A DNA stretch of 64,000 bases from an uncultured Chlamydiales bacterium (GCA_963700985.1 OY969554.1:992001-1056000); one strand, 5' to 3'. Positions 6,922 through 10,840 are shown, numbered from the stretch's first letter. Notes: a model not told the origin generated them from the sequence alone. Made by a program: numbers and translations.

Positions 6922-7869
6922 TCAAGGCGATGATGTACTAAACAGGGAAGAGATTGACTTCGCACCGACGATAGAATCTATCGCCTTAGCAAAAAGAGGG
7001 GCTACGGACACGATCTCGAGTCTCTCTTGATTGATCTCGGGAGTCAATGGCACCGTATTACTAACCAGCATCTTCTCAATCGCACTTTCTTCGAACGCCT
7101 TTCCAACAAAGAGGCCATGTGTAACTGCACCGCAAACTCGCTCTGCGCCTGCATCTTTACATACCATAGCCGCCGTCTTCAGCGTCTCTCCTGTCGAGCA
7201 GATGTCATCGACGATCAGGACATCTTTGCCCTTCACGTCCCCTATAAGGGCATTCATCTCTACTCGCTTTGCACTAACTCGACGCTTGTCCACAATTGCA
7301 TATTCGCATTTAAGCGCTTCTGCAAAGGAACGCGCTAACTTAACACTCCCAACGTCTGGAGCCACCACCACACACTTGTTCAACTTTAAACGCTGCACGC
7401 CTTCTAAGAGCACGGGCCGAGCGTAAAGGTTGTCCACTGGGATGTTGAAAAACCCCTGAATCTGCTCTGTATGCAGATCCATTGAGAGCACTCTAGTTAC
7501 TCCAGCTCGCTCAAGAAGATCAGCGACGAGTTTAGCCGTAATCGGCTCTCTTGCTGTTCCCTTGCGATCTTGGCGCGCATACCCAAAATAGGGCAGCATA
7601 GCCACGATCGATCGAGCGGAGGCGCGCTTCATAGCGTCGACCAAAATCAACAATTCCATGAGATAGAGATTGGGATGTCGTGCGACAGACTGCAAAAGGA
7701 AGACATCCCTACCACGGACGTTGTCTAAAACATGAACGCCTATCTCACCATCTGGAAAAGTCTCAATTGTCACCTTACCAAGTTGCACTCCGACACAGTT
7801 TGCAATTTGCTCGGCCAGCTCCGGGTGGGAGGTGCCTGCAAAGAGCATATATCCATTATCATTGTGCAT
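6922..7869 (-). CDS. prs: Ribose-phosphate pyrophosphokinase (start refined to ATG 7869; the longer ORF reads through the tRNA)
   Basis: FPDGEI, PYFGYARQDRK, DLHTEQIQGFF and VDDICSTGET motifs. Confidence 0.95.
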   Translation of the reverse strand: MHNDNGYMLFAGTSHPELAEQIANCVGVQLGKVTIETFPDGEIGVHVLDNVRGRDVFLLQSVARHPNLYLMELLILVDAMKRASARSIVAMLPYFGYARQDRKGTAREPITAKLVADLLERAGVTRVLSMDLHTEQIQGFFNIPVDNLYARPVLLEGVQRLKLNKCVVVAPDVGSVKLARSFAEALKCEYAIVDKRRVSAKRVEMNALIGDVKGKDVLIVDDICSTGETLKTAAMVCKDAGAERVCGAVTHGLFVGKAFEESAIEKMLVSNTVPLTPEINQERLEIVSVAPLFAKAIDSIVGAKSISSLFSTSSP

Positions 7870-7882
7870 CTTGTTTACTACT

Positions 7883-7954
<72 letters not shown>

Positions 7955-8091
7955 TCAAATGGCAAATATTAAAAATTCAAAGAACCATGCTACTAAAGCA
8001 GCAGATTTTAAAGCAATATATGAAGACAACCTTCCCTCTTGCGCGATATTTCCAGTATTTTTGAAATTTTTTTTAATGATACCGACTATAG

Positions 8092-8315
8092 ACATGTCGG
8101 ATGGTGCGTCCGTTGGCGCCCCTCCTGCGACCACCTTGCGCCTCACCTCGACTTGCCAAATCGCGTGCTCGGAAGCGGTCCGTGCACAGCACTGTCCCGC
8201 CCGCCTTTTGGCTTTCCTGCGCTGCAATTTTGCTTCGCGATCTGAGTCGTTGGGCTGCTCAACGCGTTCCCTCCCCATTAGCTTCGCTTGGGGCCCCTTC
8301 CACGTCATCTCGCAG
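8092..8315 (-). ncRNA. Structured element copy 1 (putative ncRNA or palindromic repeat element, family unassigned)
   Basis: GC-rich; its reverse complement aligns with copy 2 from CTGCGAGA to CCGACATGT; nested helices. Confidence 0.55.
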
Positions 8316-8355
8316 AACCTGCATAAAATGAAAAAGCAACCTTCTTAGAATAGCA

Positions 8356-8596
8356 CTGCGAGACGACGCGAGAAGGACCCGCACCGCAAGGTGTGGGAAG
8401 CGAGCGCTCGAGCAGCCCGCGGCCTCGGATCGCAAAGCAAAATCGCACCCGCAGGAGAGCCGTAAGGCGTACGGGGTTGTACTGCGTACACCCCGTCTAC
8501 GAGGATGCGATTTGGCAAAGCGAGGCGAGGCTCAAGGGGGCCAGCGGGGTGGTTCCGAGAGGGACACGTAAGTGCCCTCCAGAACCCCCGACATGT
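8356..8596 (+). ncRNA. Structured element copy 2 (putative ncRNA or palindromic repeat element, family unassigned)
   Basis: Three GNRA-capped hairpins (GCAA, GUAA, GUAA), long-range helices, compensatory changes relative to copy 1. Confidence 0.55.
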
Positions 8597-8647
8597 GAGA
8601 AAGAGGCTAAGAAAAAACCAAACATTCCCAAAAAAATAAATTACTTA

Positions 8648-9277
8648 TTATTGGGGGTGGGTGTTGATGATGTGTTTGAAGCGGCGGGAGGCTTGGTAGT
8701 GCTCGATGATGGGGTCGTCTATGGCTTTTTCATCGCCTGGGTGTCCGGCAACTTTGTACCAAGCGAGCGGCAGATTGCGCAGATCGATGCCCATCGCCTT
8801 GAACTCTTTGCTTAAAAGCACATCTCTAAGACCAGCCTGATCCCAGAACTCTTCCGTACGGTTCTCGCGCATCATCTCTTTAACACACGTTTGCGCCCAT
8901 TTGCGCAAAAGCTCCTGCGACTTTTCCGTGTAATTAGCAAAAACAGTCCCAGACATCACTTTGGAGAGATTTGTATCTGGCAGCTCAGGATTGATCCGCA
9001 CAGCAAAGTCTGCAGAGAAAACATCCAGTAAAGGAGGCTGCTTTACAAACACCGCATCCGCATCCACCCATAACACCTTTTTTTTGAGCTCTTGCAGCTT
9101 CTGATAGAGAAAAAAAGGTTTAAAGGCGCAATTGAGCTCCCAGCTTCCAAATGAGTCGATCCCATCAATTGAGGTTTCCAAACCAAATTTCTTGCAAGAA
9201 GCAATTAAGTTTTTGACTTCATCTTGATAAGGGGTGTTCTTTGTAAAAAAAGAAACGATGACAGGAAAATTTGCCAT
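8648..9277 (-). CDS. Putative nucleotide-diphospho-sugar transferase (GT-A fold)
   Basis: KP..., WVDADA DxD motif, MSGTVF, WDQ and HYQASR motifs. Confidence 0.75.
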   Translation of the reverse strand: MANFPVIVSFFTKNTPYQDEVKNLIASCKKFGLETSIDGIDSFGSWELNCAFKPFFLYQKLQELKKKVLWVDADAVFVKQPPLLDVFSADFAVRINPELPDTNLSKVMSGTVFANYTEKSQELLRKWAQTCVKEMMRENRTEEFWDQAGLRDVLLSKEFKAMGIDLRNLPLAWYKVAGHPGDEKAIDDPIIEHYQASRRFKHIINTHPQ

Positions 9278-9334
9278 ATAACTCTCCGTGAGTTAAAAAA
9301 TAATTATAAGAAATCTTGTAACCCGGGCCTTTCC

Positions 9335-10840
9335 ATGCACATTATTCATGTTGCCACAGAACTTGCCCCGATTGCCAAAGTCGGCGGATTGGGCGACGTG
9401 CTCTATGGGCTTTCAAAGGCACTCGTCAAGAAACAAAAAAATGTTGAGATCATTATTCCAAAGTATGACTGTATCGATTACAGCCAATTAAAACATCTAA
9501 AAGTTGAGCTGCCGGAACTGCTTTGCACCGAAGGATCTACGCAGATCAACAACACCATCTGGTCGTGTGAGTTAGAAAATTTAAAGGTGCTATTTCTCGA
9601 AGCACATCACCCGTTAGATTACTTCAATCGAGAAAAGATCTATGGCTGCCCTGATGACATCGAACGCTTCACCTATTTTTGCAGAGCCACCCTCGAGTTT
9701 CTGCTGCAATCTAAACGCGGGCCGGAAATCATCCACCTCCACGACTGGCCCACAGCGCTCATCGCACCGCTATATAAAGAGGTCTATCAGCCACTCGGCT
9801 TAAAAACACAGGGCATCGTACTCACCCTGCATAATTTAGAATATCAAGGAAAGTGCCTTCCCAGACAGGTTACACGCGTAGGACTTAATCTAGAAAAGCC
9901 AGAGGTCCGCGAAAAGATGCAAGACCCAGCTATTCCAGCCAGCATTAACCTGCTCAAAGGCGGAATCGAATATGCCGATCAGATCACAGCAGTCTCCCCT
10001 ACCTATCTGAAAGAGATCCTTACGCACAAAGATGGATTTGGCTTACATAGCGTGCTCGTCAAGCATGAGAAAAAGCTTACCGGCATCTTAAATGGCATCG
10101 ATGAAGAGTATTGGGATCCAGCTAAAGATCCGCTTCTGCTTAAACGCTATAATACCAAAGAAATTACCCGTCCTGAAAGCTTCCAAGCTGTGCTCGAAGC
10201 AAAAGCTGAGAATCGCCGTCATCTACGCCGCCATTTCAATTTGCGAGAAGGTGATTACGCGCTAGTGGGTTCGATCACGCGTCTTGTGCCGCAAAAAGGC
10301 CCCGAGCTTCTTCTTTACGCCTTAAAGCGCACGCTACTAAAAGGCGCAGAGTTTGTGCTTCTGGGCTCCGATCACGGTTCTGCAATTGAAAAGGCCTTTC
10401 TTCCTTGGAATGGAAGAGAACAGAAAGTGGGGATCTCCATCGATTATAATGAGGCGCTCTCTCATCTGATCTTTGCCGGAGCAGACATGCTGCTTATCCC
10501 CTCGCGCTTTGAGCCCTGCGGGCTTACCCAACTCATCTCACTACGCTATGGCACCGTACCCATCGTACGTCGCACCGGTGGCCTGGCAGACACGGTTTTC
10601 GATATCGATACTTCAGATCGCCCAGAAAACGAGCGGAATGGTTTTACTTTTGATTATTTCGATGCAGGCGGCATCGACTGGGCGCTAGATCGCGCACTAA
10701 ATTGTTGGGCAAACGATCGCCCAAAGTGGGAAAAGATCATGCAGAATGGCATGCGAAAAGATTTCAGCTGGGCAAAATCCGCCGACACTTATCTCGCACT
10801 TTACCAAGCCCTACTCACCAAAAAGGAAAAAGCTGCTTAG
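9335..10840 (+). CDS. glgA: Glycogen synthase (start refined to MHIIHVATE)
   Basis: KVGGLGDV, HDW, TLHNLEYQG and PSRFEPCGLTQ motifs. Confidence 0.96.
   Translation: MHIIHVATELAPIAKVGGLGDVLYGLSKALVKKQKNVEIIIPKYDCIDYSQLKHLKVELPELLCTEGSTQINNTIWSCELENLKVLFLEAHHPLDYFNREKIYGCPDDIERFTYFCRATLEFLLQSKRGPEIIHLHDWPTALIAPLYKEVYQPLGLKTQGIVLTLHNLEYQGKCLPRQVTRVGLNLEKPEVREKMQDPAIPASINLLKGGIEYADQITAVSPTYLKEILTHKDGFGLHSVLVKHEKKLTGILNGIDEEYWDPAKDPLLLKRYNTKEITRPESFQAVLEAKAENRRHLRRHFNLREGDYALVGSITRLVPQKGPELLLYALKRTLLKGAEFVLLGSDHGSAIEKAFLPWNGREQKVGISIDYNEALSHLIFAGADMLLIPSRFEPCGLTQLISLRYGTVPIVRRTGGLADTVFDIDTSDRPENERNGFTFDYFDAGGIDWALDRALNCWANDRPKWEKIMQNGMRKDFSWAKSADTYLALYQALLTKKEKAA

Follow-up and report, generated by a model that had tools for sequence, protein, structure and literature searches.

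A gene-less foldback element of environmental chlamydiae with long arms that keep a strand-specific fold

Background

Among small mobile repeats, the Correia elements are the textbook example of an orphan MITE flanked by TA, and the Tourist-like MITEs of eukaryotes represent those derived from IS5-related elements. The Rickettsia palindromic elements (RPEs) are 100 to 150 bp long and often lie in frame inside genes. RNA-OUT of IS10 is a single stem-loop of approximately 70 nt at one end of its IS. The parts usually conserved in small palindromic mobile repeats are short ends that bind proteins; in the element described here, conservation covers approximately 240 nt in each arm and takes the form of a multi-helix fold.

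We have analysed a stretch of 64,000 nucleotides, called the window below, from the genome of an uncultured Chlamydiales bacterium (G000). A first-pass annotation of the window had described two structured elements of approximately 230 nt, placed head to head in an AT-rich intergenic region and differing mostly by changes that preserve base pairing. Our preferred reading, which we hold on balance, is that positions 8091-8597 are a decayed copy of a gene-less, MITE-like foldback transposon of approximately 0.5 kb, whose arms are selected as folded single strands and which is widespread in the chlamydial order.

The copy in the window

The inverted pair is located between a tRNA-Gln gene (7883-7954, minus strand) and a glycosyltransferase-like ORF (8648-9277, minus strand). 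It occupies 507 bp (8091-8597) and its arms are approximately 73% alike. The head-to-head arrangement was confirmed both by a repeat search, which pairs 8131-8221 with 8450-8540 (91 nt, 74% complementary) and 8223-8260 with 8410-8447 (38 nt, 82% complementary), and by BLAST, which gives 72.7% identity between the arms over 187 nt. Read from the sequence, the left arm begins at 8315 and extends down to 8091 on the minus strand, and the right arm covers 8356 to 8597 on the plus strand. Since homologous arms recur in the same genome and in many others, the pair is far beyond chance. The shared blocks, the four compensated helices and the TAGAAT box quoted in the first-pass annotation are all present. 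What has to be replaced is the view that these are two separate paralogous elements: the arms are the two ends of one unit, which is copied whole.

The left arm (8091-8315, minus strand; CTGCGAGATGACG ... CCGACATGTC) is of type 1, as in copies B and C of the same genome, and is matched by our covariance model at G000:C1:1000080-1000328(-) with 231 bits. Its terminal block, GACATGTC (8091-8098), is an 8-bp palindrome and is adjoined by a TA (8089-8090), which may belong to the end itself, as its first two bases, or be a duplicated target. The arms are separated by an AT-rich central spacer of 40 nt (8316-8355), the site occupied by cargo genes in relatives. The TAGAAT box (8346-8351, plus strand) lies 4 nt upstream of the right arm, within a conserved motif, W-A-A-A-W-T-G-G-Y-Y, that precedes CTGCG.

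The right arm (8356-8597, plus strand) is of type 2 and scores 215.8 bits with the covariance model. In the minimum free energy (MFE) structure its first domain (8357-8414, plus) includes a CUGC/GCAG closing helix, an ACGCG/CGCG helix and a variable hairpin (CCCGCACC-GCAA-GGUGUGGG); consensus helices 1 and 2, both in this domain, covary. Domain 2 (8415-8541, plus), the most conserved core, is a long irregular helix (CUCG.. GAUCGC AAAGC AAAAUCGC / GCGAUUUGGCAAAGCGAGG ..CGAG) with an A-rich internal loop, and it closes two hairpins. Domain 3 (8544-8592, plus) is a terminal GC-rich hairpin with a GUAA loop in the MFE structure, and its helix, number 11, covaries. The right terminal block, GACATGTG (8590-8597), is altered in its last base with respect to GACATGTC and is followed by AG, not TA. 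Judged by these bases, the right end is degenerate and the window copy, with its right tip lost, is probably dead and immobile.

Copies, ends and mobility

The genome (2,067,302 bp in one contig, 44.8% G+C) contains 17 nhmmer matches, including three further two-armed copies, a 1045-bp copy with cargo (802716-803760) and minis of 68 to 80 bp. Two-armed copies lie at 1193911-1194425 and 320124-320599; the copy at 1580595-1580897 is rearranged and the one at 812347-812572 has a single arm. Several element fragments are also present. Two of the minis (H and L) consist of the domain 3 hairpin alone between two termini.

In two other copies, the plus-side arms are 84 to 90% identical to the left arm of the window copy. 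The right arm of the window copy matches the minus-side arm of copy B at 86% identity and part of the minus-side arm of copy C at 83%. This matching of arm types across copies shows that the unit is asymmetric and is copied whole, in either orientation, to unrelated intergenic sites. It is composed of two heterotypic arms of approximately 230 to 250 nt around a short AT-rich centre. In 38 two-armed elements taken from many genomes, the identity between the arms of one element ranges from 47 to 100% with a median of 0.72. It is below 0.8 in 29 of them, and in 27 the closer relative of each arm is found in another element. With arms this heterotypic (median 72%), pairing of one arm with the other is not the conserved feature. 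Some copies include an optional module, a structured insert of approximately 85 nt in domain 2. Arm lengths do not vary in multiples of three. A coding reading of the arms was dropped because their length changes without regard to frame and the differences go with base pairs. The numerous copies, inserted at unrelated loci and devoid of coding capacity, correspond to those of a MITE.

The ends correspond to the terminal inverted repeats of a MITE. In the genus of the window, the element ends at GACATGTC next to TA: exact GACATGTC forms the end of 39 of 46 arms and TA follows in 38 of the 46. A terminal 12-mer, CCGACATGTCTA, is present in 47 copies in G001, 53 in G004 and 8 in G003 (the reversed control gives 0), and also occurs in six of nine further genomes of the family. 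Paired 12-mers are mostly 447 to 723 bp apart, with shorter derivatives of 46 to 321 bp and one copy of 1335 bp that carries cargo. The element yields internally deleted and miniature derivatives, the minis being 46 to 170 bp long.

Two copies in G001 provide the clearest boundary. They are 97.2% identical over 542 bp and inverted with respect to each other, and their flanks are unrelated; identity ceases between ATA and GACATGTC on one side and directly after GACATGTCT on the other. At the tRNA-Gln locus, the element is present in G000, G001 and G002 and absent in G003, G004 and G005. Elsewhere copies occupy unrelated loci in both orientations. Of the possibilities raised in the first-pass annotation, the copies, their terminal blocks and the near-identical inverted pair in G001 favour a non-autonomous mobile palindromic element.

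The bases beyond the TA are loosely alike and mirrored (T-A-T-W-G, CC, an A-rich stretch), which we take to mean that small palindromic targets centred on TA are preferred. From the same junctions we infer that the TA would be a target duplication. The dinucleotide is its own reverse complement. One element (L021) shows TC at each end, and this TC mirrors as a piece of the repeat would, not as a duplication would. No empty site was recovered from the tRNA-Gln intergenic regions of five species, which are too diverged to align, or at a second locus in G001 (L019), where other species have coding sequence. In four lineages the inverted repeat extends 45 to 62 nt past GACATGTC, so this block is not always the tip.

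These observations bear directly on the idea that the spacer drives a divergent pair of immobile host ncRNA genes, of which the other copies would be duplicates. We consider this very unlikely. The strand specificity of the fold (described below), the -10-like box with its conserved upstream motif and the direction of the left arm toward tRNA-Gln, on the same strand, would all suit such a pair. Host genes of this kind are difficult to reconcile with tens of copies per genome, at loci that are unrelated and in either orientation, with truncated, rearranged and miniature copies in which the end blocks are conserved, with a presence at the same locus that varies among species of the genus, or with a left arm in the window that is barely stabler than shuffled sequence.

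Conservation of the fold

The consensus obtained with RNAalifold from 46 arms has three domains. The closing helix of domain 1 is CUGC/GCAG; domain 2 consists of the long irregular helix with its A-rich internal loop and the two hairpins that it closes; domain 3, a terminal hairpin, immediately precedes GACAUGUC. In these 46 distinct arms, 96.0% of pair cells are standard compared with 83.0% in shuffles, and 31 of the 42 pairs show two-sided changes (281 cells); no shuffle out of 500 attains these values. Sliding the partners by one to three columns leaves 31 to 50% pairing. Columns 132/204, for example, are GC in 21 arms and CG in 20, and columns 106/246 are CG in 26 and UA in 19. With 108 distinct arms, including some from other families and from metagenome contigs, pairing is 96.6% and 39 of the 42 pairs show two-sided changes (621 cells); this larger alignment was fitted to the covariance model and is somewhat favoured by it, and related copies inflate the cell counts, so that the number of pairs and of pair types is the sturdier measure. 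The three-domain fold, on the strand that reads 5' to 3' toward the element end, is thus kept by compensatory change across genera and families. Covariation of this strength is that used for defining new RNA families.

The individual arms of the window differ in this respect. The right arm has an MFE of -118.9 kcal/mol with a z-score of -5.15, and none of 200 shuffles is as good. The left arm, folded from 8312 (three bases short), has a z-score of -1.3, and 19 of 200 shuffles are as good. The first-pass annotation is to be corrected on this point: in the window, the right arm alone is clearly stabler than shuffles, and the left barely beats its own.

The asymmetry between strands that had been noted by eye is real. 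G-U or U-G occupies 56 cells against 14 for A-C or C-A, and the outward strand is stabler than its complement in 39 of the 46 arms with RNA parameters and in 46 of 46 with DNA parameters. It is also purine-rich (G 35%, A 24%, C 27%, T 14%). Together with the covariation in both alignments, and with arms that are 72% alike and have nevertheless kept the fold, the G-U excess supports the earlier proposal that selection acts on a single-stranded fold and that the pair is not simply a decaying inverted repeat.

The same data can be set against a simpler view, in which this is an ordinary palindromic MITE with no selected fold, its helices being relics of nested insertions and the compensation being due to template switching that corrects quasi-palindromes. 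Nested palindromic elements are indeed common in these genomes. In addition, domain 3 is the hairpin of a mini-element with a 5' strand that resembles a worn inner terminus, and the variable hairpins differ by whole replacement and not by point changes. We nevertheless find this view rather improbable. In domain 2, the long-range helices show single compensated substitutions in a context that remains constant, 'correction' is never seen at the conserved internal loops or at an A.G mismatch, an excess of 56 G-U over 14 A-C cells is not predicted from strand-symmetric DNA repair, and both the core sequence and the fold persist over at least 10 families.

RNA or DNA strand

The acting form of the fold is likelier to be a putative RNA, read outward from the centre, than a DNA strand. 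Its composition fits that of a structured RNA. The A/T motif upstream of the arm is fixed in position: in arms that start with CTG, A is found at -9 in 54 of 84, T at -5 in 55 of 84 and G at -3 in 74 of 84. A variant in G200, which consists of the domain-2 core alone, has a near-consensus box (TTGCAA-N15-TATAAT) 11 nt upstream of each core. The promoter searches speak against RNA. A strict scan of 7900-8800 gave no sigma-70-type site in the window, and a looser test found 11 of 103 upstream regions compared with 9.3 +/- 2.5 in shuffles, which is no enrichment across arms. The TAGAAT box picked out in the first-pass annotation as -10-like is therefore present but does not form part of a conserved sigma-70-type promoter.

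The fold could instead act in single-stranded DNA, as the 3'-ending (transferred) strand of each end of an excised or replicating element. Folded 3' overhangs of Streptomyces linear replicons, parvoviral terminal repeats and integron attC sites are comparable. In favour of this, no conserved promoter was found and, as the arms read outward, the 3' end of the folded strand lies at each tip. The sense strand is the stabler one in all 46 arms with DNA parameters but only in 39 with RNA parameters. Three-base loops are common and several are closed by covarying C-G or U-A pairs; hairpins of the GCGAAGC type, which like other 3-nt-loop hairpins are specially stable in DNA, also occur. We regard this reading as unlikely. 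The purine richness of the sense strand and its A-rich unpaired segments resemble those of structured RNAs, an A/T motif stands at a fixed distance upstream of the arm start, and the G200 core variant carries its TTGCAA-N15-TATAAT box. In addition, we know of no requirement for long single-stranded ends among IS5-family DDE transposases, the candidate enzymes discussed below.

Returning to the outward RNA as the favoured form, the consequences would differ between the two cases. In the first, this would be a large structured RNA, new and linked to transposition, from a phylum of obligate intracellular bacteria in which genetic work is difficult; a DNA strand would imply a single-stranded step in a type of transposon thought to move as duplex DNA. 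More broadly, it is possible, and we propose it tentatively, that each arm is or encodes a new class of large structured nucleic acid of approximately 240 nt, with three domains and an optional fourth module, carried by foldback transposons through the order of environmental chlamydiae and kept because it is needed in single-stranded form for spread or control. This might involve an outward antisense RNA that pairs via the self-complementary 3' block GACAUGUC, or even, in genomes with no recognisable transposase, mobility that the arms would drive with the help of host enzymes alone.

Distribution and known catalogues

A BLAST search with the 521-bp unit found it in 13 of 41 related genomes: all five others of the genus, 12 of 24 in the family and none of 16 from other families. 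The covariance model, built from the 46 arms, extends this to at least 15 of 150 genomes of the order, spread over at least 11 of 110 genera and at least 10 families; strict filters were applied and these counts are lower bounds. In some families the domain-2 core (model positions 83-188) occurs without the rest of the arm, and in one family, represented by G109, there is a solo unit of approximately 390 bp with at least 12 near-identical copies. The model would serve to annotate these repeats in chlamydial genomes.

Public records with several matches are labelled as Chlamydiae and Rhabdochlamydiaceae MAGs, with a few 'Verrucomicrobia(e)' MAGs. The plasmid and phage collections searched gave no match, and viral contigs gave two matches to an 18-mer, neither with an arm. 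Metagenome contigs contain 69 loci, approximately 35 of them with arms; these are all solo units or dimers with at most approximately 230 nt between arm matches, and none carries cargo. Many termini lie at contig ends, an indication that the repeats break chlamydial metagenome assemblies. A 15-mer scan of genome contigs gave mostly single chance matches in unrelated phyla.

Within the window, no Rfam 15 family other than tRNA-Gln reaches its gathering score. Besides tRNA-Gln, a search of 7000-10000 at E up to 10 gave just weak miRNA-type matches to the long hairpin. When ten loci drawn from seven genomes, namely G000 and six relatives, were searched at E up to 1, the arms had no match. The arm fold is thus absent from this RNA catalogue, in keeping with the first-pass annotation, which had assigned the pair to no known family. 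No description of the element appears in the portions available to us of the literature on repeats and MITEs of Rhabdochlamydiaceae, Chlamydiales and environmental chlamydiae, PMC9723776 included.

Search for a transposase

Genes are tolerated in the centre of the element. These include a DUF2442 gene in element E of G000 (6e-24), an HNH-like gene in G003 and, in G006, a decayed IS5-family transposase gene (DDE_Tnp_4, 3e-6; DDE_Tnp_1, 2e-5). The last lies directly against both arms and lacks inverted repeats of its own; another small palindromic element interrupts it in turn. Its intact relatives belong to the IS5 family (NF033581, 1e-28 and 1e-21; HTH_Tnp_4, DDE_Tnp_4). In G022, 8 of 12 termini are bordered by an extra outer segment of 49 to 50 nt with 98 to 100% identity (seven at 100%), the last approximately 31 nt of which are 90% identical to the ends of a resident IS; the outer ends in G006 resemble the other end of that IS. 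The ends of the IS and of the elements, including the window copy, all start with TAGAC. Ends shared with an autonomous element were thus seen in the G022 and G006 subfamilies, while window-type ends share just TAGAC with those of the IS.

From these sequence matches, the IS5 family is the sole lead for a partner and, we infer, the best candidate. Arms were found at none of 59 other loci with IS5-type transposases (0/29 and 0/30). NF033581 matches occur in 54 of 151 genomes of the order, with 7 of the 15 arm-positive genomes and 47 of the 136 others, and show no clear association with the arms. As a derivative of this family the element would be accompanied by a cognate transposase in the carrier genome, and none was matched in G000 or G004. 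These two genomes gave no match to TnpB, DDE_3, Y1, DDE_Tnp_4, DDE_Tnp_1, IS110, DDE_Tnp_1_2, rve, NF033581 or the piece of transposase from G006. G001, which was outside the NF033581 sample, has Y1 matches alone.

Other partners were tried. An IS630/Tc1-mariner (Stowaway-like) enzyme was rejected: DDE_3 is found in 74 of 251 genomes of the order, but termini or arms accompany it at none of 30 loci, and it is missing from G000, G001 and G004. A REPIN/RAYT system was also set aside, as Y1 (PF01797) is present in G001 and G022 but absent in G000, G004 and G015. Searches with DDE_Tnp_1_2 and rve gave nothing linked to the arms, and a scan of G000 for multi-copy ORFs gave large paralogous proteins only and no insertion sequence.

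We also considered whether the ends could be guide-RNA scaffolds, of the TnpB/IscB omega RNA or IS110 bridge RNA type, which read outward into the flanks and whose enzyme is encoded elsewhere. The geometry fits, with a structured scaffold of approximately 240 nt that ends at the boundary and reads outward. The enzymes do not: the TnpB zinc ribbon (PF07282) was not found in G000, G001 or G004, nor IS110 (PF02371) in G000, G001, G004, G015 or G109. Models for HEARO and related RNAs in Rfam have no match, and no homologue of the HNH cargo has arms beside it (0 of 7 loci). We give this explanation very little credence.

In the mechanism that we favour, a DDE transposase supplied in trans would move the element at TA in small palindromic targets. 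The best candidate for this enzyme would be a member of the IS5 family (NCBIfam NF033581, Pfam HTH_Tnp_4 and DDE_Tnp_4), which the genus of the window would now lack. The fold would be needed in the single-stranded state, preferably as outward RNAs from the centre, for example antisense or control RNAs like RNA-OUT of IS10, or, as a second choice, as the folded 3'-ending (transferred) DNA strand. Minis in which most of an arm is missing occur at different loci (2-3 in G000 and more in relatives); if these moved on their own, the fold would not be needed for movement.

Comparison with known systems

As they are generally described, the Correia/NEMIS MITEs of Neisseria are, like the chlamydial element, gene-less, palindromic, present in many copies, intergenic, flanked by TA and accompanied by derivatives of differing length. 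A further likeness is that no transposase was found in the carrier genomes of the window's genus. The elements persist, with near-identical copies in at least G001, in genomes where no transposase family searched could be linked to them, which is the same puzzle as that posed by the Correia elements. On the same general description of the Correia elements, the chlamydial element is three to five times longer and its arms are approximately 72% alike. Each arm has its own three-domain, covarying and strand-specific fold, and the element is spread over an order of Chlamydiota. No sequence relation to the Correia elements is apparent.

Members of the IS5 family and the MITEs derived from them resemble the element in their ends, which start with TA followed by GAC, in the transposase gene located between arms in G006 and in the approximately 31 nt with 90% identity in G022. 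Normal members of the family, in contrast, have inverted repeats of approximately 17 bp and no structured arms (none at 59 loci), and the genus of the window has no matching transposase.

The likeness to RNA-OUT of IS10 is that of a structured RNA, putative here, which reads outward from inside the element end and would be antisense to any transcript that enters there. The chlamydial fold, known at present from sequence, differs in its length of approximately 240 nt and in being found at both ends. REPIN doublets (RAYT/Y1) likewise occur head to head and as single units, with folds kept by compensatory change; they are, however, simple hairpins of approximately 100 nt, and Y1 is lacking in three of the genomes searched (G000, G004 and G015). 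The Rickettsia palindromic elements, a likeness raised in the first-pass annotation, are alike by description as palindromic selfish repeats of an obligate intracellular bacterium; they differ in being 100 to 150 bp long and often within genes. Among these systems, the chlamydial element behaves as an orphan TA-flanked MITE; it differs in its long heterotypic arms, their conserved, covarying and strand-specific three-domain fold and its spread throughout the order.

Genes carried between the arms

Some copies of the foldback element carry a gene between their arms. One such copy, of 1045 bp, lies elsewhere on the contig of the genome under study (G000:C1:802716-803760; extracted locus L008, 720-1775) and has a DUF2442 gene in its centre. 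This gene encodes 89 amino acids, matches PF10387 at 6e-24 and is bracketed by a duplicated segment comprising the centre and the start of an arm. In G003, another genome of the same genus, a 239-amino-acid HNH-like ORF (L022, 624-1343) is located between the arms of one element. Its match to HNH_2 (4.5e-4) is below the cut-off, and for none of its seven homologues elsewhere in the order were arms found nearby.

Three large paralogous ORFs of 737-945 amino acids are also present in the genome under study (G000:C1:1576890-1579100, 2059796-2062597 and 2062788-2065622). None of the three shows transposase features. Fragments of the element lie within approximately 1.5 kb of two of these paralogues: D at 1580595-1580897 and J at 2058470-2058546.

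Genomic context at the tRNA-Gln locus

In the window, a tRNA-Gln (UUG) gene (7883-7954, minus strand) lies 136 nt past the left end of the element, on the strand towards which the left arm reads. A putative outward transcript from this arm would enter the tRNA gene in the sense orientation. The other neighbouring genes, for a ribose-phosphate pyrophosphokinase (6922-7872, minus) and a starch/glycogen synthase (9224-10840, plus), are ordinary. Within the genus, the element also occupies this locus in G001 and G002 and is absent from it in G003, G004 and G005. In G003 (L163) and G004 (L165), the intergenic region beside the tRNA gene contains other long palindromes instead, which in G003 include GTGGAC-rich hairpins.

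Other palindromic repeats and variant forms

G003 and G004 contain several palindromic repeat families. Solo arm units in a more distant relative, G109, are surrounded by 170-bp palindromic repeats (L226, 1195-1365 and 1767-1937; also L235), which contain CTGTTACAGAGTACTAG and constitute a repeat family distinct from the arms. A second palindromic mini-element of about 210 bp, unrelated to the arms and with the ends CCCAACTTGTCCCCTATC ... GATAGGGGACAAGTTGGG, splits the transposase remnant in G006, a further relative (L027, approximately 988-1197).

A variant form and a possible further one occur in two other relatives. In G200, a foldback consists only of two copies of the domain 2 core, the most conserved part of each arm, around an AT-rich centre of 270 nt (L219, 1137-1594). 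The motif TTGCAA-N15-TATAAT lies 11 nt upstream of the core on the plus side; because the centre is mirrored, the other core is preceded by it as well. In G022, a hairpin tipped by the palindrome TCGACATGTCGA and followed by an IS-like outer end (L358, approximately 1452-1503) may represent the element after collapse or excision.
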